DNA of 64,000 bases, taken from NCBI GenBank assembly GCA_951406725.2, contig OX597815.1, positions 144,522,001 through 144,586,000 of the forward strand, in the 5' to 3' direction. Under the pieces are notes generated by a model. That model worked only from the letters and a program-made list of their open reading frames with translations, had not been told where the DNA came from and did no database searches. Source of the stretch: Octopus vulgaris (taxonomy: Eukaryota). Within the stretch, counting starts at the first letter, position 1. Every line of letters starts with the position of its first letter. Position numbers and translations under genes: made by a program. Shown here piece by piece: positions 3,562 through 61,186 of the stretch.

Positions 3562-4450
3562 CTAGCTGACGTACCCGTAATTCCCGGAAAAGCGGGGCTT
3601 ATACCTTGGTTCCATTCTCATAATTGTTTCGCTAATCCAATAACAACAATACAAAGTATGTAAGCCCTTAAAACGTTTTTTGTGCATTTACAGAGAATAC
3701 CGAACTCTTACACAGAATCTTGTTTTCAGGAATTCCCAATAAGATATGAATACCCACATTGTGAAGTCAGTTACGAAATAACATGAAAATAGTTACCCGA
3801 TAGTAAGAATTCAAATAAAATGGCTCCGAAAAGGACTTTAATGCGTTCCCAGAGTATATAGAACAGAGGAGGAAATACTAATAAGGTATATATACTAAAA
3901 TCATGAAGCATCTTACGTAATAACAGGCTAATCGGATATGAGATAATAACAATTCAAAGTAAACAACTCTGAAAAGGACTTTTATAAGTTCCCAGAGAAT
4001 ATTACCCTCAGGGGCGCTAGTGTTGGTATATTCGTGAATAAGTCACTAACCAAAATAAGTGAATCTATTGTTTAGGAAAATACTATTTACTTGTTTAAGG
4101 GTTGTACTTGATGAAATGCGAAAATAACTCTAACAGTTCAAATACTAAGAAATAAGCATACTCAATTTGATTTATACCAAATGAATGGGTTATTTCCCTT
4201 GGCTGTTAAAATCTGGGCGAATGAGTTATTTCCCTTGGCTGTTAAAATGAAATATATTAAATATGTATAAGGATTCCTTCCAGGGGCCCTATTATCGATT
4301 TTTTTTCAACAACCTGAGTATGTCATGAGGTTTCCAGACATGAGTTTTACTCACGTGTTAAGTTTCATTAAAATCGAGAAAACGATGTAGGAGGAGTTAG
4401 CTAACAAATCCACAAACACGCCCACAGACAGAATTTCCCACATATGTAGA
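3562..4450 (-). mobile_element. Non-autonomous Helitron, full length
   Basis: Minus strand starts TC (4450), ends CTAG (3562-3565) after a GC-rich subterminal segment; inserted between A and T; second copy at 51707. Confidence 0.8.
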
Positions 4451-7296: not shown

Positions 7297-8260
7297 GTAA
7301 TAATAATAATAATAATAATAATAGCGCTTTCTTTTATTTGCCACCAGGGCGAAGGATGAGGGGGACAATACAAAGACATATAAAACGTGGGAGTTTACAT
7401 GGTGTATATAAAACGTATATACAGTGTACGTTAATAGAATTGAACTATACATAGTATACAGCAATAAGGAAGAAAATGTGATGGTAGGGGGGGATCTTGA
7501 TACAAGAATACCATTAGGGATGATCGAGGAACCACGCCATCCAAGATCGCCCTGAATACCACGGACAAATACCTTTTCCAACTCCCTTCCTCCAACTCAC
7601 AAGTCTACACCGAGTGGTACCATCTACTCTTGCCATTTTCGCAACTTTTACCCACTTTTTCATAAATTCACTCGAGGACAGCACCTCCCTCTCCACCCTC
7701 ACTTTCCTTTTCAAGTGAAATTTGAAAAAGTCGATGATGGCTTAACCCAAGAGGACTGTCTCTGTCCTCATTCCTTTCAGCTTCGTCCACCAGACAACCT
7801 CTTTCGCCACAGCAACCAGGCAAAGGAAAACTACCTAGCCTGACCGATTAAAGGATGGCGGCGGGGAAATCATCACTATGAACAGATGGATCCGTCCCAC
7901 ACGCGACAGCAGCTTTTCGTATGAGTCAGCAATGCCCGGACATTGAAGGAGTGCATGCAGAACGGTTTCGTCACTCTGCACGCACCTTGGACAAGCCCGT
8001 CTGACAGCACATCCGTGCCTGTAGAGTTTATATCGAACCGGTAGCACTGCCAAGTCAAAGACATCTGGAAATTATCCATAATAGTCGCCGACAGGAAAGT
8101 CCTCCGGAACAGACTAGTCAGTTCATCTTCGTCAATGCCTAGAGTTTCCCCAAGGACGTCATCGCACTTTCCTGCTATGAAGCCTCTGTAAATAGCTAAA
8201 GTGGAACATCCAGCGATCCTACTGCCCGACTCAGAAAGCACAAACCTCCGCCAAGGCAAC
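7297..8260 (-). mobile_element. Decayed Tx1/L1-clade LINE 3' end (zf-RVT region, 3' UTR, (TAT)n tail)
   Basis: LPVRYKLYRHG...CPRCVQSDETVLHALLQCP is a CCHC zf-RVT motif; followed by KRKVRVER...KKWVKV; frameshifted; tail at 7297-7323. Confidence 0.85.
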
Positions 8261-8269
8261 ACTAACGTC

Positions 8270-8598
8270 CTCTCAACGATTAGCCAGAGATGATTTTTAA
8301 AATGAGAATATCTGAAATATACTTGATTGCTCTTACAAACGAGAATGCTAAAAATGAACCCAACCGCTCTCAAAAATTAAGTAAAAAGAAAAACAAAAAA
8401 AATGGAAAATTATCCAGAATTCTTGTCCGGTACCGGATCGATCCCAAAATCTAATCAGTTCATGCCAGTCACGAGGCCAAACATCCCTGAAAGTTTCATC
8501 CGATATCCATCGAGCAGATCTTGAGATATCTTGTCCACGGACAAACAAACAAACGCGACTGAAAACAATACTCCCGCCTTCGCTAAGACGGAGGTAAT
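8270..8598 (+). mobile_element. Helentron/HINE (DINE-1-like) non-autonomous element
   Basis: (caaa)n followed by gaaaacaatactcc-cgccttcgctaagacggaggtaat terminal hairpin; left boundary approximate. Confidence 0.55.
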
Positions 8599-9425: not shown

Positions 9426-9875
9426 TAATAACGTTAAAATTTCTTCACGTAATTAAGATTTGGAGTATATTGTCATCTAATTAGTGGTTTCTAGTTAAAG
9501 GTGAAGACAGTAATCTAAAAGGTGGTTACAGAATTTTGTTCTAATTAGTGGTTAACAAAGGTCTTATTTGTTCTGTATTCTGATCCATTAAGTGTTGAAT
9601 TTAAGTAGCGTTTATCAATGTTTCTTGTGAAAGAAGAAGGACTGCAAGGGAACAAATTACCATAATTAAGATGGTTTTTGACCTTCTCAACCTTTGTCCA
9701 ACGCTATGGCCAACAAAGAAGAATTATATGGATGTGACAACTCTTGTTTAGTTCACTGATCCAGAAATAGCTTTGACTGAAGAGAGACAAGCAGATCGAA
9801 ACATCGCGGAGTCTCAATGAATCGAGTGAGTTGTTAACATATCGTCTGAAAGAAGGTTTTCTACAGTGATGAAGC

Positions 9876-22435: not shown

Positions 22436-22474
22436 TATTTTTCTGATGATGGACAAATGTCCGAAATGTTTACG
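22436..22474 (+). ncRNA. Hammerhead ribozyme-like motif (decayed) in a Penelope-like remnant
   Basis: CUGAUGA-U-GGAC-AAAU-GUCC-GAAA-UGUU; stem I poorly preserved. Confidence 0.6.
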
Positions 22475-23325
22475 ATCTTTCTCTTTCCTTTTAAGCATTA
22501 GACTTATGACACCCGTGTTAAAATTTGTCCCTCTAATTGTGTTTTCTTGTTTTTGCTCATTCATCTCACACACAGACAGACAGATAGAGATACATACATA
22601 TATGTATATATACACATTCACTAGCAAAATTTTCATTACATACTCCTTTTTATGAAATTAATCTGTCAAGCCTGATAGACATGAAAGAAGTGTGAGGGAA
22701 ATGTGATATATCTCAGTTACATTTGGATGACGAAGCATGCTTGTTGGATGTTTTTAAGGCATAACAGGTGGTGTCCATATGCCTAGGTGTGCCTCTGTGT
22801 ATATATGTTTGTGCGTGTGTGAGTATATATATATACTGAAAGTGGTGACAGCGAGAAGATGGTTAATGTACTGAAAGAAGGGTTAGTTATTGTAAACACA
22901 TTCTTAGCCATTCAATACTGTGATGAAATTGTTTAACAAACAATCAACGACTGACTTGCTTTGCAGGAATTAATTGTGAAATTTGATATATTTTTCTACA
23001 CAAAGGATGCAATTTTAATTAATTACAAAAAGAAAGATATATATTTAAACAAGTTGCTCACTATATTACTCTATTTAACTATATGTTTTTCATGAAGAAG
23101 GCACCCCTGAAAAATTTCCGTTTATTTATAGTTTTATAGTTGTCACTCCTATCACCGTTCATTCACACAAACACTATATTTTATTCCATTGGCCTGGAAA
23201 AGAGCTGGCAAATCATGATAAGAGTAGACAAATGAGGTCAAATTACAGTGAAACATGCTTAGAGTTGTTACTATACTTGAGACAAAAATCAAACTATCTT
23301 CATTGCACGTTCCCCCATCTTAAGG

Positions 23326-23370
<45 letters not shown>

Positions 23371-23494
23371 TAAAAGGAATTCCAACCTTGTCTGATTTTC
23401 ATGTTTTATTTACAATCTTAGAATGATATAATATAAGATTATTTAATATAATAGAATAAAATAAAATAGTAGAATGTTAAATGTTCATTACGAT

Positions 23495-23539
23495 TGAACT
23501 AGTACTTTCATGCATTAAATTATGCAATCTTCAGGTTCA
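23495..23539 (-). ncRNA. Minimal type-I hammerhead ribozyme motif
   Basis: UGAAC CUGAAGA U UGCAU AAUUUA AUGCA U GAAA GUAC UA GUUCA: stem I UGAAC/GUUCA, palindromic stem III AGUACU, cleavage triplet CUA; AATAAA and (TA)n downstream. Confidence 0.75.
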
Positions 23540-23688
23540 TGTAGTAGTGGTGACAGTCATGCTTCACAATTTTTGACTGTAGCGAGATGGTTAAATCTGT
23601 GCCTTAAATACACCTGTGTGGGCTCCAGATTGCTAGGTTTTGCAAACTGTACTCTGACCAATCAGTGTGTAGCATCACTCAATTACTT

Positions 23689-23768
23689 AAGCTGATTGGT
23701 TGGTTTAGGAGTCACGCTTTGTTGAACATGTTCAACAAAGTGTGACGCCTAAACCAACCAATCAGCTT
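23689..23768. repeat. 80-bp palindrome (2 mismatched pairs, no spacer)
   Basis: aagctgattggttggtttaggagtcacgctttgttgaaca|tgttcaacaaagtgtgacgcctaaaccaaccaatcagctt. Confidence 0.92.
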
Positions 23769-23960
23769 GACAACCGATGCTGGTGTGTTTACGTCCCCGT
23801 AACTTAGCAGTTCGGCAAAAGAGACCGATAGAATAAGTACTAGGCTTACAAAGAATAAGTCCTGGGGTTGATTTGCTTGACTAAAAGTCGGTGCTCCAGC
23901 ATGGCCACAGTCACATGACTGAAACAAGTAAAAGAGTAAAAGGGTAGAAAGAGTAAAGAG
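23765..23960 (+). mobile_element. Family-B SINE 3' half
   Basis: gcttgacaaccgatgctggtgtg...gactgaaacaagtaaaagag. Confidence 0.85.
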
Positions 23961-24694
23961 AGATAAGCATATTAAAGGGGTCTGTGGGAACATTAATTTA
24001 AATAAAAGTGGTCTTGGTAGTGAGAAGGTTGGGAACCACTGCTCTATACCAATGACCCATGACTACAGACCTTAATCAGAGTTTACAGGATTTGAAACCG
24101 TGATCAAGCAGACTCAGTACAATGTGTGTGTTCATGGGTACTTGTATGTGCACATACAACAAACATAGAAGTGTGATCCAAACCCAACCTAAATACTACC
24201 TGCCAGGTAAGTGTATATAAATGTATATACATTTCATTGAACAAAGTCTTTGAATGTATTTCGCAGTGAGCGCATGCCAACCTAGATTTACTGAATGAAG
24301 ACATAATCACTTGTGTTATGACAGGAGCACCGAAGGCCACGCCCTCTCGTCTCATGGTGACAAGACAATGTAAACCTGCACAATCTCAACGTTTGTCAGA
24401 CATCACAAATTCATGGTAATCATTCATCCTGAATATACAATTATAACATAAACATTTCATTCAAGCAATTTTGTTTAGGACCAGAAAGTATCACAGCTCA
24501 GAACAGTTACTGATCTGGAAGGAGACATAATTATTTGGTTGTGAGAACACAGTTCACACACCTCAAACATGTACTATTGCTACACAGGTAAAGACTGTAG
24601 GTCACGTTAACCCTTTGCCTGTCCTACGTATCACATGCAATACACAAAACATATCTCCCTGGTGTCCATTCATCATATACGATGCACATTCCTA

Positions 24695-25035
24695 CGTGTA
24701 GTAAGAAGCTTGCTTCTCAATCATGTGGTTCCAGGTTCAGTCCCACTGCATGGCACTTTGGACAAATGTCTTCTACCATAACTTCAGGTCAACCAAAGCC
24801 TTGTCAGTAAATTTCGTGTGTGTCTGTGTTTTCCCCCAACATTGCTTGACAGCCAATGTTGGTGTGTTTACATCCATATAACATAGCAGTTCAACAGAAG
24901 AGTCCAAGAAACAGGCTTAAAAACAAAAAAATTAGTACTGGGGTTGATTCACTCAACTAAAACTTCATCATGGCTGTGCTCCAGCATAGCTGCAGTCTAA
25001 TGACTGAAACATGTAAAAAGATGACAAGATAAAAG
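24695..25035 (+). mobile_element. Family-B SINE (older copy)
   Basis: Collinear with the 41245-41705 copy. Confidence 0.75.
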
Positions 25036-25149
25036 ATACTGGAGCAAACTTGGGACGTATAGAAAGAGAGCTTTATGTTGCTCAGAACAGCTGAAACAAG
25101 GGCTAACTAAAGGTCCAAAAACAAGCATGGACAATTAGGACAAACCTAT

Positions 25150-25325
25150 GAAAATATGCTTTGGACGGGCAAAGAGTTCAAAAACACAAAGCCATCAAAC
25201 TGACTGGTAACCTTTCACTTAACACCCTCCAACCATCAACCAGTTGACATGATGTATATAACCACTGCAGCTCTGGTTGGTTCCTGCTCTTCAGAACTAG
25301 CAAACTGTGTATCACCATGTTCATG
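25150..25325 (+). mobile_element. L2/Crack-like LINE C-terminal remnant
   Basis: RVQKHKAIKLTGNLSLNTLQPS and SCSSELANCVSP resemble DRVQRKAIRLIGDPSL..LQPLSHRR and CSSELA..MPP. Confidence 0.5.
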
Positions 25326-25399
25326 TTCAATTGATTGATTCATTAAAAGGGCTATGAGAACCCTAATCTTTATCCTCCTTGACTTGGTAATTAAATAAA

Positions 25400-25802
25400 A
25401 ACATTAGAGGCCCTCCTTATATACTGATGATATCAAAACAGTTGGTGTTCAGATTGAATTTCTATAGGTTTAGTGTCTGTAGAGGAGGCATAGACAAAGA
25501 TTAACGCAATAAGGGGTTTAGGAAATGGCACATAAAGAAATAAAGGGCTAATCAGTGGAACATGGATGGTATGATACTCATCTGCTAATTCAGAAGGACA
25601 GGAAACACAGTCATAGGGGTTATATACACCATGTTAGTTGGTTTATGTTTGTAGGGTATTGTTAATGAAAAGTCATCAATCAGTTTTACAACTGTTTCTT
25701 CAACATGGTCTACAATATTTAAATGTGTTGCTTGAATGACAAAGCATGTGTTCCAAATGATTTTAAGGTTGTGACAGGTTGGATCATCTGCGTAGGAGTA
25801 CC
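25400..25802 (-). mobile_element. L2/Crack-like LINE remnant, opposite orientation
   Basis: YSYADD RT motif, then IVDHVEETVVKLIDDFSLT and CPSELAD. Confidence 0.5.
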
Positions 25803-26387
25803 TCTGTGTGTATGTGTGTGAGTGTGTATGTTGTAAAGCAATGACAGTAAAGCATGAGTTAATGTATTGAAGGAAAAGAATAGAAGCTGTAAATAGTTTC
25901 TCAGTCATTCACAAAACTGTTGTGAAGAATATATTTCATATATGTGAGAAATACTCTCACACAGAACAACTATGTTTTCTGTAAAATCAGCAACTGTTTT
26001 GAGCTGAGATACTTTCTGACCCTGAACAGGAATGGTCACTTGGTTTACTAAATTTTACAGACAAGCTTTTGGTTAAACCTGTAGTTCTCATTTTGATATC
26101 CAGACCAGATCCAAAACCTGGACTTTTTTAGGGGGCTGCACTAAAAAAAGGGAAGCACAAATCAATTAATGAAAAATTTATAATATTTATAGAGGGAAGA
26201 AGGTCAGGGGATGCATGCAGCCCTGGGAGGCACAGTTAAGAACTGCTGGATTAAATCAAGACACTTATCTAAGGGTTTCAATAAGAGGATTGAACACATA
26301 ACCATGTACAGTTCTATATTTAAGAGATGACGAATTATGTACATTATTTACATTTGATGGATATTTGTCCTCATTTAGTTTGTTGTT

Positions 26388-26433
26388 AACACAACGTTTC
26401 GGCTGATATACCCTCCATCCTTCATCAGGTGTC
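26388..26433 (-). ncRNA. Minimal type-I hammerhead ribozyme motif (intact core)
   Basis: GACAC CUGAUGA A GGAUG-loop-CAGCC GAAAC GUU GUGUU. Confidence 0.72.
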
Positions 26434-26486
26434 TCAGGGAAATTTCGAACCTTAGGAATGGGAACCCCAATTCGAAATTTCCCCAA

Positions 26487-26532
26487 GACACATGATGAAG
26501 GCTGGAGAGTATATCAGCTGAAACGTTGTGTT
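26487..26532 (+). ncRNA. Hammerhead motif, inverted copy with C3>A mutation
   Basis: GACAC AUGAUGA A GGCUG-loop-CAGCU GAAAC GUU GUGUU. Confidence 0.6.
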
Positions 26533-26674
26533 AACAACGAACAAGATGAGGACAAATATCCATCAAATGTAAATAATGTAAATAATGTACATAACCATGT
26601 AGTTCTGAAGTCAACTTCTTAACAACACAGCCATACTGTTATGGGACACAACTTCCTATTTCTTCCGTCTAAAT

Positions 26675-26997
26675 CAGAGGTTCTCAAACTTTTTGGGCCA
26701 CCGCCCCATCTCATGACCGCCTCAGCGCCCCCACCCCTTTTTTATGTATAAATAAATACTTTATATTTTACTAATTTATATATACTATGAATCATTTGAT
26801 ATTTAATATAATATTACATAATTTGTATACAATACTATAATAATATAATAAATTCATAACGTCCCCTAATCCACTGCCTTCCTCACAAAACCTCCTTTTT
26901 CTCTACCCCCACCTCCCTCTTAGGCACCAGCGCCCACCTGGACCGTCTCAATGACCACCACACCACGTGGCAGTAGCACCCACTTTGAGAACCTATG
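26675..26997. mobile_element. hAT (Charlie-like) MITE
   Basis: TIRs cagaggttctcaaa / tttgagaacctatg; 8-bp TSD gtctaaat / gtctacat. Confidence 0.8.
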
Positions 26998-27329
26998 GTC
27001 TACATGTATGTGAGTGTGTGTTATAATGAGCGAAAGAAAGGTGAAGCTAGTATTCAATAACTGACATATATTTGTAGGACATTTGTTTAAACTGAAACTA
27101 TTGGTCATAAATCTGTTGTAACACATTTGCGATTCTTTTCATGACTCACCGAAAAGATCATTGACCGTAAATAGTGAACAACAATCGTATTAAACAATAT
27201 CTCTCTCTTTCCCTTTCTCTGGATCTCTCTCATGCACAAGCAGGCACACAAATATATAAGTCTGTGGATGTGGGGTGTGTAGATGTACTTCTACATACAC
27301 ACAAACACATGCACATATATATATGTTCT

Positions 27330-27925
27330 TTTTTATTCTTTTATTCCTTTGTTTCAGTGATTTGACTGCGGCCATGCTGGCGCACCGCCTTTAGTCAAGC
27401 AAATCAACCCCAGGTCTTATTCTTTGTAAGCCTAGTACTTATTCTATTGGTCTCTTTTGCCGAACCGCTAAGTTACGGGGACGTAAGCACACCAGCATCG
27501 GTTGTCAAGCAATGTTGGGGGGGACAAACACAAACACACAAACATTATAGAAGGGCAGAACACCATAGAAAAGGAATGAAATACCAAACCTCATGATATT
27601 GCTTCTAATAAATATTGATTTTTATGACTATACCAACCATGATAGATTGTTAGCCACTACACACATTTTTTCTCTCCTTGTTTTTTCTGTGTTCCTTTCT
27701 GTAGAAGAGCATAGGCTTGAAACGTAAAAGACTTTTTCTATTCCTGAGCGTTATACTAATAGACCTGTTTGTTTTGTACACCACCTGTCTTCCTCTTTTG
27801 TTTTTTTCGTAAACTCTCCTTATATATATATATAATGGACTTCTTCCAGTTTCCATCTACAAAATCCACTTACAAGGTTTTGATCAGCCCAAGGCTATAG
27901 TAGAAGACACTTGCTCAAGGTGCAA
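27330..27925 (-). mobile_element. Family-B SINE with a Penelope-like insert (~27545-27820) in its internal microsatellite
   Basis: SINE 3' half 27330-27540, 5' half 27835-27925. Confidence 0.8.
27695..27730 (+). ncRNA. Variant hammerhead motif (core CUGUAGA)
   Basis: CUUU CUGUAGA A GAGC AUAG GCUU GAAAC GUA AAAG. Confidence 0.6.
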
Positions 27926-27999
27926 GAACATTCTAATTATATATTAATAAAATTATAAATCTGAGCAGTTATAAATTATAAAATTATAATCTAAGCAGT

Positions 28000-28506
28000 T
28001 TGGCATTATATTATGCTTGAGAAGAAGACCCATCAAGCTGAGAAAAATTGCAGTCGTTACAGATACATATACATAAATACATACATATATATATAAATCG
28101 GCACCTGTGCTGGTGGAACATAAGAGTACCCCAGTGGCACCTGTGTTGGTGAAACGTAGAAGTGCTCCAGTGGCACGTAAATGGCACCCATGCCAGTGGA
28201 ATGTAGAAGCATCCCAGAGGCATGCAAATGATACCCATGCTGGAACTTAGAAACATCCCAGTGACACATGATGGCACCCATGCCAGTAGAACATAGAAGC
28301 CCCCCAGTGACATGCTAATAGCACCCATACCAGTGGAGCGTAGAAGCACTCTTGGAGTGGTTGTCGTTAGGAAGGGCATCCAACTGTAAAAACATTGCCA
28401 GATCAAATTGGAGCCTGGTGCAGCCTCCTGGCTTGCCAGTCCTCAGGGAAACCGTCCAACCCATGCCAGCATGGAAAACGGACGTTAAACAATGATGCTG
28501 ATGATG
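28000..28506 (+). mobile_element. Family-C element with a ~46-bp degenerate internal array
   Basis: ggcacccatgccagtggaa units 28100-28350, then family-C tail. Confidence 0.75.
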
Positions 28507-28999
28507 AATACTAGTTATTGCATTGATATTTGGTTCCCCATATTCTTCCACATTTAGTTGGGTAATAATCCACAACCCTTATAACTCCAAATCATTTTCG
28601 GTGTTTATTGGCCCCTTGAATAGCCACATAGACACCCACCAGGAGCCAATATGATCACTTTGCTGATCCTTGAAGTATACAGAACAAACTCATAGATTTC
28701 AGCCAACATTGGATGGAAAAATTAATTGAATTACACCAGAAATTCTCTCATCAAGTACAATTAGTTAAAAGTAATCAGTTGTTGATGAAGTCGCAATAAA
28801 GACTGAAAATAGACTAACTGGACACTCATTTCATGTCCAAGAGTTAGTTTGAAGGAAGACAGCTTATTTACTACTGTCTAATGTTATTAACAATGTCAAA
28901 TTTAATCACACTGTTGGCTGAATTCTATAAGTTTGTTACATCGTATAGTACAGCATGTATCAGCACCATTTAATGTCATACCTATATGTATCATATTTA

Positions 29000-29083
29000 T
29001 AATTTACATATATGTAAATGTAATTTATATAAGTATATAAATATATGTATTTATATAAGAGTATATACATAAATGCATATATT

Positions 29084-29117
<34 letters not shown>

Positions 29118-29334
29118 GCATATATATTTATATCTGTGTGTGTGTGTGTGCTTGTCCCCTCACCATTGCTTGACAACTGATGTTGGTATGTTTATGTCCC
29201 TGTAACTTAGCAGTTTGGCAAAAAGACAGATAGAAAAAGTAATAGGCTTACAAACAACAAATCCTGGGGTCAATTTGTTCGACTAAAGGCAGTGCTCCAG
29301 CATAGCCACAGTCAAATGACTGAAACAAGTAAAA

Positions 29335-29381
<47 letters not shown>

Positions 29382-29648
29382 TATGTATATATATATATAC
29401 ACACACACATATGTATGTATATATATATATTCACATATATGTATATATATATACACATATATGTATTTATATACACATATATGTATATATATATACACAT
29501 ATATGTATTTATATACACATATATGTATTTATATACACATATATGTATTTATATATACACACATATGTATATATATACACATATATATACTTATATATAC
29601 ACACATATGTACATATATACACATATATATATACACACACATTGTTTG

Positions 29649-29688
<40 letters not shown>

Positions 29689-29843
29689 TGTACATGTATA
29701 AATACATGAATATATATATATATATGTATAATTACATACCTATATATATACATATATAAATACCTACATATATATGAACATTTATATCTATACATATATA
29801 AATGCTTAAATATAACATATGCAACCTGCATATGTGTGTGTGC

Positions 29844-29872
<29 letters not shown>
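29000..29872. repeat. Complex (TA)-based satellite including ~20-bp atatacacatatatgtattt units; family-B 3' half at 29140-29337
   Basis: Directly visible. Confidence 0.9.
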
Positions 29873-29874
<2 letters not shown>

Positions 29875-30741
29875 AGCTATTCTTCTCCCAGTATGCACGG
29901 GGTAATGAACGTGAAGTTGTTCGACTATTAAAACTATGGAAGTTTACCTACTGAGTGTAAATAATTTAGATAAACACATTTACTATAATGATTTCCAGTG
30001 TAGGCATGAGGCCAACACAACCATATATATATATATTATAGGAGGAAGTTTTAGCTTTGTGCCAGTTTTGAGTGAAAACACACACATATTGATATACAGA
30101 GATTGATAGGTAGTCAGACAAAGTTGAATGTATGTGACCGATGGTATCATGAGGTCAGCTGGTTTTGAGGATCAGAAAATTATGTAGTCATCATCATTAT
30201 TTAAAGTTCATTATCTATCTTGGCATGAGTTGGACAGTTTGACAGAAGCTGGCAAGGCTGGAGAGCTGCACCAGGCTCCATTTGCCATTTTTGGTATATT
30301 TTCTATGACTGGATGCCCCTCCTAATGCCAAACACTTTACAATGAATACTAGGTGCTTTTTATGTGACCCCCAGCTTTTACATGGCACCCATATGGGTGC
30401 TTTACACATAACGCCAGCATAGGTACCTTTTACCTTGTCTCAGCACGGGTGCTTTCATGTGGCACCAGCACAGGTGTTTTTTTATGTGCCCCACCCAAAA
30501 AAAACAAGTATGTGTAGAAAAGAGAGAGAGGCGAGAGGAAGCAAGGAGAGAGCACATCCTTGAGTCAGAAGTGTATGTGAGCAACTTTAATGCCAAGCAA
30601 GTGGCTTCTTTCAGTTTCTGTCTACTGAATTCACTCTCAAGGCTATAGAAGAAGACACTTGCCCAAGGTGCCATGCAATGGGACTGAACCCAGAACCATG
30701 TGGTTAGGAAGCAAGTTACTTACCACACAGCCACTCCTGCA

Positions 30742-30780
<39 letters not shown>

Positions 30781-30783
<3 letters not shown>

Positions 30784-31026
30784 CTCCACTACCTTATCTC
30801 CCCTTCTTCCTAGTTCTCCTGTGTGACCCCTCTGCCTGGCATTTTCCATGATAGATAGCTAGCCACTAAACCTTTTTCTATTTTCTCTCCCTGTTTATTT
30901 CTATGTTCCTTTCTGTCGAAGAGCACAGGCTCAAAACGTAAAAGACTTTCTCACTTCTTGGGTGTTAAGCTAATACATCTGTTTGTTGTTTACACACCCA
31001 TCTTCGTCTTTTGTTTTTTTGTAAAT

Positions 31027-31040
<14 letters not shown>
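30781..31040 (+). mobile_element. Penelope-like non-autonomous element between (TA)n tracts, same family as 27545-27820
   Basis: Shared ccatga..tagat..tagccacta..ttttctctcc..tgttcctttctg segment; hammerhead-like CUUU CUGUCGA A GAGC ACAG GCUC AAAAC GUA AAAG at 30909-30944. Confidence 0.7.
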
Positions 31041-31109
<69 letters not shown>

Positions 31110-31545
31110 GGGCTTCTTTCAGTTTCGTCTACCAAATCTACTCTCAAGGCTTTAGTTGGCTCAAGGTTATAGTAGAAGACACTTGCCCAAGGTGCTACGC
31201 AGTGGGACTGAACCCAGAACCATGTAGTTGGTAAGCAAGCTACTTACCGCACAGCCACTCCTGTGCCTATAATTTATTCTCATAATTCTGCGAAAGTATT
31301 GGCCTGTAGCCTTTAGCCATTGGAATAAATAGAAATAAATTTTTATGACAGATCAATTTTTTGAGTTAGTAGAAAGATATGTATTCTATTTACACATCTT
31401 AGGAACATAAATTTTGACAAAGGTTTGGTGGAAGATTTTAATTCAAAACTTATGAAAACAAGACATTTGTACTACAGAGCCAGAGCCGGTTTCAGCCAGA
31501 TTGGTAACAAAAGGGTTAAGCAAATTTTGATATGTATTCTATTTA

Positions 31546-31784
31546 CAAAGGTGGCAAGCTGGCAGAAACATTAACACGCTGGGCAAAATGCTTAGCGGTA
31601 TTTCGTCTGCCGTTACGTTCTAAGTTCAAATTCCGCAGAGGTCGACTTTGCCTTTCATCCTTTCGGGGTCAATAAATTAAGTACCAGTTACGCACTGGGG
31701 TCGATGTAATCGACTTAATCCCTTTGTCTGTCTTTGTTTGTCTCCTCTATGTTTAGCCCATTGTGGGCAATAAAGAAATAAGAA
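31546..31784 (+). mobile_element. Family-A SINE with 18-bp TSD
   Basis: tgatatgtattctattta at 31528-31545 and 31785-31802. Confidence 0.9.
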
Positions 31785-32410
31785 TGATATGTATTCTATT
31801 TATCTTATCTCACTGACATAGGCATGAGAACTGGGGATGTTGGGCGTGCAAGCACACTCCTTAAAATTTGGGGGAATAGGGGGCAATGAAAATGCTTCAA
31901 ACATCCTCCTGAAAAACTTAGTTTGCATCCCTTAAGCAAATTTTGTTCCACATTTATGCTCACTGACTTCTGCAATAAAGTTAATGCTCCCTTCAGGGAG
32001 AGAATTCAAATCTGTTTCTGGAAAATGGAAGAAAAAAAATTAGTACATTTTGTGAGAAGCTGGTATATTGAATTATCAACAAGGAATTACCAGTCATTTC
32101 CTTCCCTTCAAGCTCTTTTAGAAGCCACAGAAATTGTAAAATTTTGTTATAACCTTAAGTATAAATTCTTGTGTGTGATTCTTGATAAAATTATAATTGG
32201 AAAGTTAATTGGTTTATGTGTGACAGAGAAGTTTATCAAGACAAGAAATTGACAGGAAAACTGATGTTGTTTTGAAAATGGTGAATCAGGCTTTTAATTC
32301 TGCAAGTCCTTGGAGTGAATATATATCTACTCAGCAGTATTCATATACCTTAACATTGACCAAATTGCTCAGCAGTATCAAAATTACTCAACAATATCCA
32401 CATTGCTCTT

Positions 32411-32487
32411 TAAAAAAATCATGGATCAGTACCTTAAAAAAATTGTGAACCAGTACCTTAAAGAAATTGTGGATCAGCACCTAAAAT
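32411..32487. repeat. 24-bp tandem repeat x3
   Basis: aaaaaaatcatggatcagtacctt / aaaaaaattgtgaaccagtacctt / aaagaaattgtggatcagcaccta. Confidence 0.75.
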
Positions 32488-34444
32488 TTCTCAACAGCAC
32501 CGATGTCACTCAGCTGAACCCAAATCGCTCATCTGGACTTACATTCAATTCATCTCAATGACATGTGGAAAAACTTTCAACAACTATCAGGTTGGCATCT
32601 AAAGTCTCTCCAAAAGAAAGTAAAGAATCCATAAAAGTTACCATCATTGTGGTGGTAGAAAAAAGAAAAGATGTTGACAGCTCTACATTGATTGTCTCTG
32701 AACACAACAAAAATTTTTAAAAAACCACTCAAAGAAAAACTTTAATCATTTTAATAACAATGTCCAATCAAAGCTAAATCAGTGTTCAATAGATTTGAAT
32801 TAAACAATGTTGTGTGAAGGCTGGTAATCGATAAAATGGTTCTGACCAAAAACAACATCCCTTATCTAAGGATTACCATTAATCAGATGAAATGATGAGG
32901 AAAAAATCACATTAAGTACTAAGTTAACCGATATCTGAGAAAAGCTGATCACCTGATCAATATAAGTGATTAGTTGACACTGGATAAAGTCATTGATTCA
33001 GTATAGTTGATCACATAGAGGAACACAGCCATAATCAATAAACACAGGAAATGCAGAGTTTTATTTCAAAATACCTGCAGCTGAACAGAATTGTACTCTG
33101 ACGACCAATGTTCTGGTGATAGTTCTATCTGTAACATGTTACATAATACAACTTAGTCACCAGCTGCACAACATGGAGCAAAACCACTGTGCAATAACTG
33201 TGGTTGCAAACACATCATGTAGAACGTTTACTCAGCAGCAGCAAAACTTATATGAAGTTCCACAAACGTAATTCTTTCACTAGAATTTATCCAAGTGGAA
33301 CACCATGCTAAATTCATGCAGTCTTCAAACCAAATATGGAATCTGTGTCTCTTTTCCTGTGTTATGATAACAGTGAAGTTAGTGATGTTTTCATGGATCA
33401 TATTACTCGCCAAATATTCTACATTATTATAACCAAACGTTTAGAAATGTTTATCTTGGCCCAAACCAAACACCTGTAAAACATGAATTGAATATGAAGT
33501 TTCAGTCTGTTACCAATGTTTATTACCTGTAGATTGCATTATACAGGTGGTTCTCTGAATCTGAAGGTAAAACACCAAGTTATGAAAATCCTCTTCCTGG
33601 TACTAAGAAACTCCCAAAAGAGCTGAACAGCAGAAGGTTTTCAGAGAAGGAACTCCACTCTTTCTTTTATTACAGTCATGCTGGACCACTGCTTTTGAAG
33701 TTATTTGTTAGGAATATCCACTCCAGAACTTAATGTGACATTTATTTTTTGATCTCTGTTTATCGAATGACTAAGTCACTATTTATTTGCATCTTTTTTG
33801 TTGCTGTTTTTTTTTTTTTTACTTAAGGAGTAACAGGAATAAATGCCAATATACACCAGTATACAAACGTAGAAATGAATACGTATAATAGTGTATGTGT
33901 ATGTAGCACAATCACCCACCAAATTGGGTGTATTTTTAATACCTTATACATATGCCCACTCACACTCATGTACATATATGTACATGTATATAATCTACTA
34001 TTTATATAGAAAATCAGTTATACATTTCCCAGATGCCTTCGCTAAGCAGAATAATGTCTTTGTTGCTTGACCCTTCTAATCTCTTCTAGGCCACCACTGG
34101 CTGGAATGGAGATAACAGACCTCCAACGAAATCATTTGTTCTCAACAATATGTCTATCCTTCTGGCTGCTTTTCGATAGTTATAAAAACAAGAACTCCGT
34201 AAGCTAAAGGCAGTTACCTAGAGTGACCATCAGTGAGTATGAACGTTATTATTGCACTTTCTTCAAACACTTCATTCATATATTTATATAACTTCTCTCA
34301 CCAATCTCCGATAATCTTTCTCGCCAACCTCCAACAATCTCTCCTTCCTCCAGCTGACAGTTTTTTGTACATTTTCGTGACGGAAATTATAACGAAATTG
34401 CTTCCTTATATCAGAGTAATAAGGCGTTTCAAAAGAACATCTTT

Positions 34445-34536
34445 ACCCGCGGAATTACCGGGTACACCAGCTAGTATGTATGTATATATATATATATACA
34501 TACATACTAGCTGGTGTACCCGGTAATTCCGCGGGT
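34445..34536. repeat. Perfect 92-bp palindrome at a Helitron 3' end
   Basis: 34445-34490 is the exact reverse complement of 34491-34536; the ORF track shows the same peptide on both strands. Confidence 0.95.
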
Positions 34537-34950
34537 GCTACATAGATGAATTTTAGCTTGCGTGCGAGACGGTTTGCGTGAATATATGTACACATGCTTT
34601 TATGTGTATAATTTAGATTCATATTCATACGTCTGTATATGTATGTATGGCGTTTACGCGCATCCTTTTGTGTATGTTGATACATATATGTGGATTTTAA
34701 TATAAATATGTATTGCAGTATTTATAACAGGTTTAATTTCTATGCATTAATTTGTACTGTCTTCATTAACGGCAATAGGTTTTTTCCTCGGTTTTTTCCT
34801 CGGATTTTATAATTTTTATAAGTTTTTTATATATATATACATATATTTTTGACCTTTTTGTTTATCGCTCGAAGATTGACCGTTTTTTCTAAAGGGCCAA
34901 TCAAACAAGTCCATTTCTTTTTAAAGGTGTAGCGTTTGTAGGAGTATAGA
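34507..34950 (-). mobile_element. Non-autonomous Helitron
   Basis: Minus: A|TCTATACT start at 34950; hairpin cccgcggaattaccggg then CTAG|T at 34507-34510. Confidence 0.65.
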
Positions 34951-34983
34951 TTGAATTAATATATATGTTCCATTCTAGCAAAA

Positions 34984-35017
34984 ACTGTCTGATGAACGGC
35001 AACGAGAAACTCAGAGT
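34984..35017 (+). ncRNA. Minimal hammerhead-like motif in a Penelope-like 3' end
   Basis: ACUGU CUGAUGA ACG GCAA CGA GAAAC UC AGAGU; AATAAA at 35049 then (TA)n. Confidence 0.6.
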
Positions 35018-35901
35018 AACAGATTTTGTTGAATTTTCTGCTGCTTAAAATAAAGTATATATATATATATATATACACGTGTACGTGTGTGTGCGTATAA
35101 ATATGTACGTACATATAAGGGGGCTAAGTACATGTCATCTGTGATAGTCCATCTTCAAGGCTTTAGTCAATCGAAGACACCCCCCCCCCCAGTAAAAGAC
35201 ACTTGCACAAAGTTCCACGCAGTGGGATTGAACCCGAAACTACGTGGTTGCAAAGCGAACAAGTTAACCTCATAGTCGTAATTACACTCCATTTAATTCC
35301 ACGTTCCACCATTTCTATCATCCTTGACATTGAAATATTAACACACAAATATGCCGTGCCACATACAACGTGAAATTGTTTCTACTCTGCAGTCCTCTCT
35401 GTTAGTTTTTCATATAAATATTGATTTTTTTCAGACATTTTCCTACAAATTCGAACAGAGGAAATTGAGAGCGTGTGATATTTTATGCGTTTTCTCAAGG
35501 GCATCGGTGGTTTATGGGAAATCAATTGACTTCGATTTAAAATCAAACTAGATCGTCAACTCATTCATAGCGAAATTTTGGGTATTACCATTTTATGTAA
35601 TTTCTAAATACTGACGAAAACAAAATGATAATAAATAAATAAATAAATAAATAAACTTTGGTGTTAGAATCATATATAGATATAAAGTTTAATATATTGT
35701 GACAGAACCTGAGAAGATATCTTGAAATCTAGCTGTTGACGATATTTCAATACCTTTTATTAATAAAGTAGAGGTAAACATTTGGACTAAATTTGAAACG
35801 ATAGAATATTAGTTACTTCAAATATATAAAGGTTTTATGCTAATGACCTTAAAACATGAAAGAAGATTGTGATAAAATCGTGAGCAGAAATCAATATATC
35901 A

Positions 35902-51706: not shown

Positions 51707-52425
51707 TCTACTACAGATGTGGGAAATTCTATTTGTGGGTATGTTTGTGAAGTTGTTAGCTAACTCCTCCTACATTGTTTTATCGATTTTGATGAAATTT
51801 GACACTTGAGTAGAACTCATGTCTGGAAACCTTATGGCATACTCAGGTTGTTGAAAAATATCGATAATAGGGCCCCTGGAATAGATCTTTATATATATCT
51901 AATATATTTTATTTTAAAAGCCAAGGGAAATAACCCATTAACCCTTGGAAGGAATCCTCATATATAGCCAAGGGAAATAATCCATTCATTTTCCTAAATC
52001 ATTTGGAATATATCAAATTGAGTATGCTTATTTCTTAGTATTTGAACTGTTAGAGTTATTTTCGTAATTTATCAAGTACAACCCTTAAACGAGTAAATAG
52101 TATTTTCCTAAACAATAGATCCACTTATTTCGGTTAGTGACTTATTCACGAATACATCAACACTAGCGCTCCTGAGGGAAATATTCTCTGGGAACGCACA
52201 AAAGTCCTTTTCAGAGTGATTTACTTTGAATTGTTATTATCTCATATCTGATTAGCCTGTTATTACATAACATGCTTCACGATTTTAGTATACATACCTT
52301 ATTAGTATTTCCGCCTGAGTTCTATATAGTCTGGGAACGCATTAAAGCCCTTTTCGGGGCTACTTTATTTGAATTCTTACTATCAGGTAACTAATTTCAT
52401 ATCATTACATAATTGACTTCACAGT
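51707..52425 (+). mobile_element. Helitron, 3'-truncated copy of the 3562-4450 family
   Basis: A|TCTACTACAGATGTGGGAAATTC start; collinear with the reverse complement of ~3760-4450. Confidence 0.85.
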
Positions 52426-60314: not shown

Positions 60315-61186
60315 CGAGGTGGTATCAAAAAGTTCTTGGACTAGTTCCGTAGCGCGCTGACAGATGGCAGCATACGGTTGCGTGCGCAGTGAGAACTAGT
60401 AGTAACTTTCATGAGGCAGTGTTCCGAGTAATACCGCTGCGTTTACTTCGCAAGTTGTGAAATTTGTGTATTGATGATCTCATGTATGCTGCAGTCTGCG
60501 ATTTTATCAAAGAGCCAACGTAAAATATTGCATTAAACTTGGCAAGTCTGCTATGAAGACACTGAGTATGCTTCGGCAAGCTTATGGTGACGAGGTAATG
60601 GTCGTACGCAAAGTTTCGAGTGACAGGGGGCGCTTCAAAAGCGGAAGAACGTCCATGGAAGATGATGAGCAATCTGGAAGACCAGCCATGAGCGTCACTT
60701 CAGGAAATGTGGTATTATGAGCGTCACTTCAGGAAATGCATCAAGAATTCGTCCCCAAGGGCCAGGTCGTCAGTCGAGAGTTCTACTGCAATGTTCTGAA
60801 GCTTTTGATGGGGGACATTCGGCGAAAGTGACCGGGTCCCTAGATTCTTCACAGCAACAAGGCATCCTGTTGCCGAGATCTCCCCACTCGTGAGTTTCTC
60901 GCCAAAGACAACATGATATCGCTTCCACACCCGCCTCATTCGCCAGATTTAGCACCTGCGGACTTGCATCTCTTCTCCAAGATGAAAATGCAGCTCGCCG
61001 TTTTAATACCGTTGTCAGGATCCAGAGTGAATCGCAGAAGGTCCTAGACTCGAAAAGTGGCAGGAACGCTAGAACCGGTGTATTGCTGCACAAGGTGACT
61101 AATTCAAAGGAGATGTTAAAACTTAGGTAAATAAGTTATTTTTTTATTAAGCATAGCTAGTCCGGGAACCTTTTGATACCACATCA
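60315..61186 (+). mobile_element. Internally deleted mariner transposon (pseudogene)
   Basis: 30-bp TIRs with TA TSDs; QRANVKYCIKLGKSA...LRQAYGDE...RFKSGRTSMEDDEQSGRP (HTH) and PHPPHSPDLAPADLHLF (YSPDLAP motif). Confidence 0.92.

Follow-up and report, generated by a model that had tools for sequence, protein, structure and literature searches.

The window analysed here is a 64-kb stretch of the Octopus vulgaris genome (64,000 nt of contig OX597815.1, assembly GCA_951406725.2, positions 144,522,001 to 144,586,000 of the forward strand), and our subject is a group of seven minimal hammerhead ribozyme (HHR) motifs lying between positions 22436 and 35017 of it. These motifs are likely members of the already known hammerhead ends of Penelope-like elements (PLEs) and represent five new families that were missed by Rfam. 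All seven had been proposed in a first-pass annotation that counted at least four families. All are present, the positions assigned to them being either the edge of stem I or C3, and they make up five families in six insertions, with the two motifs of family C counted as one insertion. The exact positions of C3 are 22443(+) in family A, 23534(−) in B, 26428(−) and 26492(+) in C, 27699(+) and 30913(+) in the two copies D1 and D2 of family D, and 34989(+) in E. PLE hammerhead ends number thousands per animal genome; what is new here is the five families, their density (13 kb hold six insertions) and a clean instance of the footprint that PLE insertion leaves.

The window has a GC content of 38% and is rich in microsatellites. 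Self-alignment showed that ~20.6 kb of it consists of repeats recurring inside the window, mostly of a few families of the short interspersed element (SINE) type, which are reminiscent of octopus SINEs.

Detection of the hammerhead motifs

The window was scanned with two descriptors, both composed after the sites were known, yet modelled on the published consensus. The type-I descriptor was scored against 902 local dinucleotide-shuffled windows, and the strict descriptor, consisting of the core, stem II and the palindrome without stem I, against 1005 shuffles. With the type-I descriptor, four sites (23534, 26428, 26492 and a doubtful eighth site, 9777) reached a score of at least 8, where the shuffled windows averaged 0.28 and never exceeded 3, and with the strict descriptor two sites (22443 and 23534) were found against a shuffle mean of 0.002. 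The score of 27699 was 6, and at a score of at least 6 the type-I descriptor gave six sites against 1.6 by chance. Neither scan found 30913 or 34989; the former was accepted because it is 79% identical to 27699 over 211 columns, and the latter because it matches the HHRs of Hydra-clade PLEs. Six of the motifs lie in repeats or exceed the shuffle controls, and a published PLE ribozyme is matched by the seventh. The proposal of minimal PLE-type hammerheads with type-I topology, from several families, is supported.

The core (CUGANGA / GAAA / UH) is intact in A, B, E and the minus-strand motif of C, hereafter C(−), and is altered in the plus-strand motif C(+), D1 and D2. Stems I and II can pair and helix III is palindromic in B, C and D, and A fails at stem I; only B combines an intact core with all three stems. 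As had been stated earlier, the motifs are not linked to an open reading frame (ORF): none of at least 100 codons ends just upstream of any motif on the same strand. Standard annotation does miss them, as the hammerhead family is absent from the Rfam matches listed for the window (150 of 209) and from three local Rfam scans. The matches listed were of the microRNA (miRNA) type only, driven by microsatellites and hairpins.

The motifs had also been described as lying near AATAAA and (TA)n, which holds for some of them. A (TA)5 or longer run begins within 150 nt downstream of four of the eight sites (B, D1, D2 and E), the background being 8% window-wide and 22% locally. Counted by insertion, with 9777 included, this is four of seven (binomial P = 0.04 at the local rate and 0.001 at the window-wide rate). 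Sense-strand AATAAA was found within 100 nt of B and E only. Targeting of TA sequence, which had been suggested for the whole set, likewise fits B, D and E and does not fit C, which was inserted into non-TA sequence with a 13-bp duplication, or A, which ends in a mixed microsatellite.

Six of these seven insertions are inside 12.6 kb (P ~0.008 if placed uniformly), an interval that was picked afterwards and outside which decayed copies may have been missed. We found no cause for the clustering and do not regard the sites as a single system. The 3' tails of different families showed no significant likeness to each other in 28 tail comparisons. Family A as a sister of D was dropped as unproven: of 1000 shuffles, 46 and 283 equalled the tail scores in this set of 28.

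The doubtful eighth motif, at 9773..9818 (+), has a type-I descriptor score of 8.5, where 0.28 such hits are expected per shuffled window. Its core is intact, with a 4-bp stem I, a weak stem II and an imperfect helix III, it lacks a TA end, and it may be a chance match. A 48-codon frame upstream of 9777 that by eye looked like a nuclease C-terminus was rejected, as a search of 1.84 billion proteins matched it solely to a repeat protein with no relation to nucleases.

Families C and D

The family C locus at 26296-26601 is a typical PLE insertion, made of two head-to-head 5'-cut copies, a one-sided 30-nt tail and a 13-bp duplication. The HHR of the minus arm lies at 26388..26433 (C3 at 26428, descriptor score 9) and that of the plus arm at 26487..26532 (descriptor score 8), within arms (26334-26449 and 26471-26586) that are 91% complementary and directed away from each other. 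Repeat comparison placed the left copy of the 13-bp direct repeat, likely a target-site duplication, at 26296..26308 (+), and the right copy at 26589..26601 (+) matches it perfectly. The tail of ~30 nt is present on the minus arm only (26307..26336, −), as delimited by arm comparison and by the boundary in repeat depth. In the sequencing runs the repeat depth stops at ~26304-26307, and therefore the one-sided tail is family C sequence. The core of C(−) is intact with one mismatch in stem II, and C(+) has C3 changed to A at 26492. In a single transcript across the locus, the arms are predicted to form a long hairpin of about −175 kcal/mol that would hide the sense hammerhead. The combination of an inverted truncated copy, a one-sided tail and a duplication was seen in family C only, and A, B, D and E are solo ends. 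Immediately to the right of the insertion, 26675-27005 is occupied by a distinct repeat of lower depth.

The abundance of C and D was estimated from contigs of four runs, aligned to 26250-27860 at 80% likeness. The depth of C and D was in the millions and that of single-copy DNA was 56 (run X1) and 28 (run X3), which gives 67,000-170,000 times single-copy, or 2,000-5,500 times after dividing by 31 for contig overlap; according to the tool's own warning, summed contig depth is not copy number. Relative to the main SINE, the depth of C and D was 6-22% (X1, X3). C and D are dispersed repeats, likely with thousands of copies or more. Searches with the family C pattern gave no match in metagenome, genome or viral contigs, and those with the D and E patterns gave none in viral contigs.

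The runs also show how the majority letter differs from the window, with 40 of 118 difference rows listed. Five of the listed rows fall inside motifs, where three restore structure, two (26508 and 27711) are loop letters and none breaks a pair. In all four runs, the majority letter at 26492 is C (96-99.7% of depth), restoring C3 of C(+), that at 26418 (89-99%) restores the stem II pair of C(−), and that at 27718 is C (90-98%), restoring G10.1-C11.1 of D1.

Family D comprises D1 (27637..27834, +; HHR at 27695-27730), which ends in (TA)n, and D2 (30782..31040, +; HHR at 30909-30944), which is 3.2 kb away and flanked by two (TA)n runs. In both copies, U replaces A at core position 6 (27702 in D1 and 30916 in D2); D2 in addition has G12 changed to A at 30933, and it reaches ~130 nt upstream of the core without an ORF. 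Position 27702 is absent among the listed difference rows. Because the lowest best-run shares among these rows are ~72% (9 rows) while 27702 is unlisted, A6 is probably below ~72% of depth in every run, a limit that presumes a certain ranking of the rows and is weakened by an expected change at 26519 that is likewise missing from the listed rows. The presence of U6 in two diverged copies, together with the absence of 27702 from the list, suggests that at least one family D master lineage carried U6.

A6 is found in all 56 motifs shown in Fig. S3 of PMC4209133, among which there is no cephalopod, and in all rows of File S2 of PMC8557442. Changes of A6 are reported to slow cleavage, and a natural A6C variant cleaves slowly with a preference for Mn2+ (PMC3088659, PMC7151607). 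In the literature listings we recognised no published account of a U6 core or of these families, with the reservation that Lunse et al. 2016 on PLE hammerhead variants may cover U6; PMC8967140 and PMC10886601 contributed nothing specific to these families.

Families A, B and E and the outside relatives of E

Family A is a minimal HHR at 22443..22470 (+), with C3 at 22443 and U17 at 22470, found with the strict descriptor. Its core is intact with an extra U and its stem II has 4 bp (GGAC/GTCC), and in helix III CG has decayed to TG and stem I does not form. The motif is followed by ~100 nt of pyrimidine-rich tail and then by the mixed microsatellite.

The HHR of family B, at 23495..23539 (−), was found with a type-I descriptor score of 11 and also by the strict descriptor. 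It has C3 at 23534 and A17 at 23500, 5 bp in each of stems I and II and a 6-nt palindromic helix III, and the base of stem II is closed by a U10.1·U11.1 pair as in Hydra-clade HHRs. An AT-rich 3' tail follows at 23329..23494 (−) and ends in (TA)19; the limits of the element itself are inferred. In folding, the minimum-free-energy structure of the B homodimer was predicted to be a double hammerhead, at −18.0 kcal/mol against 2 × −5.9 kcal/mol, and B would be the best candidate for activity.

Family E carries an HHR of the Hydra-clade type at 34985..35022 (+), with C3 at 34989 and A17 at 35018. Its stems I and III are intact and identical to those of Hydra-2_aMil, which also has the same cleavage base (PMC8557442 supplement); stem II is damaged, with 2 bp closed by A·A, and (TA)n lies 37 nt beyond the cleavage base. 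Both E and B thus have a Hydra-type HHR near the 3' end together with (TA)n, traits that accompany the clade and do not define it. B and E likely belong to the Hydra clade, and the form of A, C and D is the minimal one that typifies other clades of PLEs. A perfect palindrome with 46-nt arms and a (TA)n centre lies 450 nt upstream of E at 34445-34536; it is single-copy in the window and gave spurious miRNA matches.

Relatives of E were collected by a metagenome scan with E's stems, and all counts that follow are among the matches listed, which comprise at least 120 loci holding 138 HHRs. As to arrangement, 102 loci were single, 18 were head-to-head and none was tandem; in two cases, a pair of loci represents one and the same insertion. 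The tail motif was on exactly one arm in 13 of the 18 head-to-head pairs and on both arms in none, and the other five consist of one with a variant tail, three cut by contig ends and one that is symmetric. A boundary repeat of 11-20 nt was found in 6 of the 18 pairs when 130 nt were searched.

With at least 300 nt upstream, 75 of the outside HHRs were assessable. A Hydra ORF end lies upstream of six of them, at a distance of 161-184 nt from the HHR in five of the six, and 69 have none. Truncation was judged by this ORF-end count, and a count of 5' extent was set aside, as its single-subfamily reference overstates truncation. The outside proteins are called Hydra because P0001 was matched by eye to Hydra-2_Amil. 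Mostly ORF-less ends are therefore left by a family whose ORF is intact, with a geometry like that of the C locus, and because 69 of 75 outside HHRs are without an ORF end, such ends are the normal debris of autonomous PLEs. The first-pass annotation, which saw no ORF, inferred non-autonomous elements, a conclusion that does not follow, as ORF-less ends are what 5'-truncated autonomous copies are expected to leave. As for the link to reverse transcriptase (RT) or GIY-YIG ORFs that was to be checked, none was found in the window, and ORF ends were found only at outside relatives of E.

Two features of the outside loci are recorded here. In L043:307-2651, a Hydra-type HHR with U·U closure, a tail and (TA)n precede an ORF of Hydra type at full length, after which a second copy begins; this partial tandem is possibly intact. 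In five pairs (L009, L010, L024, L070 and L111), short pieces of the hammerhead 5' core recur at the centres, as after several RT template switches.

Elsewhere in the window, ~7310-8380 (−) is likely the 3' end of a long interspersed element (LINE); it ends in (TAA)n and contains a zf-RVT match at 7838-8071 with E = 5.6e-05, under the Pfam cut-off. A weak match to the helix-turn-helix domain of the Mos1 mariner transposase (E = 0.0003) lies at 60478-60717 (+). The ~2 kb at 32400-34450 lack the repeat families of the window, contain many stops in every frame and gave no match in Pfam; they are possibly an old element. Two copies of a ~720-bp repeat lie at 3728-4449 and 51711-52423, and a near-perfect hairpin at 23689-23764 is joined to a SINE fragment.

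Origin of the motifs and comparison with known elements

We consider, with a probability of roughly 70%, that the seven motifs are the 3' ends, or pseudo-long terminal repeats (pLTRs), of five PLE families, left as short 5'-truncated copies of autonomous elements and now decaying. Octopus genomes are reported to carry PLEs, including 30 recently active Penelope families (PMC13282606), and an octopus Hydra-clade element with an HHR has been described (PMC8557442 supplement). Most published minimal motifs occur singly and have been called "probably related to truncated PLEs" (PMC4209133).

The following sequence of events would account for the motifs. The PLE protein, which combines an RT and a GIY-YIG nuclease, would nick AT-rich DNA and prime reverse transcription 30-130 nt downstream of the HHR, and synthesis would mostly halt just past the hammerhead, leaving either a solo end or a head-to-head pair; the divergent truncated arms, the tail on one arm and the 13-bp direct repeat observed at 26296-26601 would be such a product. 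The C and D copies have diverged by drift from a master whose hammerhead was better formed, as the majority letters across the runs restore C3, the stem II pair and G10.1-C11.1. The master RNA might cleave weakly as dimers via the palindromic helix III, or be aided by the element's protein. PLE hammerheads have been reported to cleave weakly as dimers (PMC4209133, PMC6765202), and the protein-assisted HHR is dispensable for insertion in vitro, where the tail marks RT start sites (PMC11167929). Inserted copies would then undergo neutral decay. Most of the genomic copies here are predicted not to cleave, because in four of the seven a letter of the core is altered or stem I is missing, and the two arms of C would pair together in one transcript.

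Several observations weigh against this interpretation. Pfam detected no RT or GIY-YIG remnant in 457 ORF pieces of at least 48 codons in the window, although it also missed three full Hydra proteins, and a profile of 39 Hydra-clade proteins had no match in the window. A, B and E each have one copy in the window, (TA)n is not within 150 nt downstream of A or C, and the HHR published for the octopus element Hydra-1_oBim is not among the motifs. The ORF link for E comes from another organism, and the similarity between E and the outside loci spans only ~50 nt. In seven outside relatives of E, two of four stem II pairs covary, a weak signal that 11-91 of 500 shuffles equalled; this test covered outside loci only, where stems I and III are fixed by the search pattern. 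The majority letters come from a part of the difference rows, and folding energy was better than that of shuffles at only one of the eight sites, 26492 (z = −2.8).

The last point also bears on the possibility that chance, in repetitive and AT-rich DNA, produced some of the motifs or all of them: seven of the eight sites fold no better than shuffles, A is without stem I, a relaxed type-I scan gives 3.5 chance hits at a score of at least 5, and a chance origin is plausible for 9777. The shuffle controls, the pair-restoring majority letters and the agreement between E and an HHR already published counter this, and we regard chance as the least probable explanation of all. Very improbable as well is that the motifs are non-LTR retrozymes (LTR, long terminal repeat) replicating via circular RNA. 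The type-I topology and the lack of an ORF would agree with it, but retrozymes consist of 150-450-bp units that are repeated in tandem and carry canonical HHRs (PMC7229834). No motif in the window is in a tandem array, and the only pairs seen are the inverted pair of C and the two D copies; the retrozyme comparison made earlier fails for lack of tandem units in this window.

A different question is whether C, D or both are truly non-autonomous, that is, SINE-like elements, possibly with an RNA polymerase III head, which took over the hammerhead-bearing 3' end of a PLE and depend on PLE proteins in trans for their mobility; their insertion mechanism would be the same as for truncated autonomous copies, and the difference lies in the nature of the master. 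We think this unlikely. The depth of C and D, roughly 2,000-170,000 times single-copy, is high for an autonomous PLE, but summed depth is no copy number. The stretch of ~130 nt upstream in D2 is ORF-free, but it is shorter than the 161-184 nt between ORF and HHR in five of the six outside loci, and therefore the missing ORF in D2 is uninformative. A scan for tRNA genes found none in the window. Among octopus repeats there is one with a tRNA head and an end resembling that of family C. Non-autonomous PLE derivatives do exist (PMC8557442; bioRxiv 10.64898/2026.07.22.740005). A related and equally tentative idea is that the members of family D are non-autonomous parasites of PLEs, present in high copy number and descended from a master that had the U6 core, either as an undescribed natural core variant or as an element that spread to thousands of copies with a crippled ribozyme. 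If the latter is true, nature would have run in family D an experiment which shows that PLEs keep the hammerhead as a fold recognised by the RT and not as a catalyst. This touches the open question of why PLEs keep hammerheads, as cleavage mutants still insert in vitro (PMC11167929). If U6 is family-wide, family D would make hammerhead retention testable, for A6 changes reportedly slow cleavage, yet the family appears abundant.

Returning to truncated PLE ends as the preferred interpretation, we compared the motifs with four known systems. Like the non-LTR retrozymes, they are non-coding, have type-I HHRs and are probably PLE-derived (PMC7229834; bioRxiv 10.64898/2026.07.22.740005), and unlike them, they have minimal rather than canonical HHRs and form no tandem units. 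They share with the minimal HHRs of PMC4209133 the type-I topology, the U-rich 5' flank and the consensus features of PLE motifs, namely one nucleotide inserted behind A9, the pair G10.1-C11.1 and a minimal helix III that is palindromic. In both cases the copies are mostly solo with some opposite-strand pairs. Family D differs from them in having U6, in contrast to the A6 of every motif in that figure.

The Hydra-clade PLEs (Craig et al. 2021, PMC8557442), most rows of which have the U·U closure and nearly all families of which target (TA)n, resemble E in stems I and III and in the cleavage base, and B in the U·U closure, and both B and E end in (TA)n. In contrast to the Hydra-clade elements, B and E have no linked ORF in the window, and the 6-nt palindrome in helix III of B is shorter than in the Hydra rows.

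Family C corresponds to the inverted-pLTR Penelope (Arkhipova et al. 2013, PMC3846280; Poseidon PAc, PMC11167929), in which one arm of the head-to-head pLTRs carries a 31-bp tail and the duplications measure 8-10 bp (PMC3846280), and a similar insertion structure has been reported in other PLE clades (PMC8557442). The duplication of C is 13 bp, or 7 bp without microhomologies, against 8-10 bp, and no coding part is left. The truncated head-to-head arrangement, the ~30-nt tail on one arm and the short duplication are shared by both.

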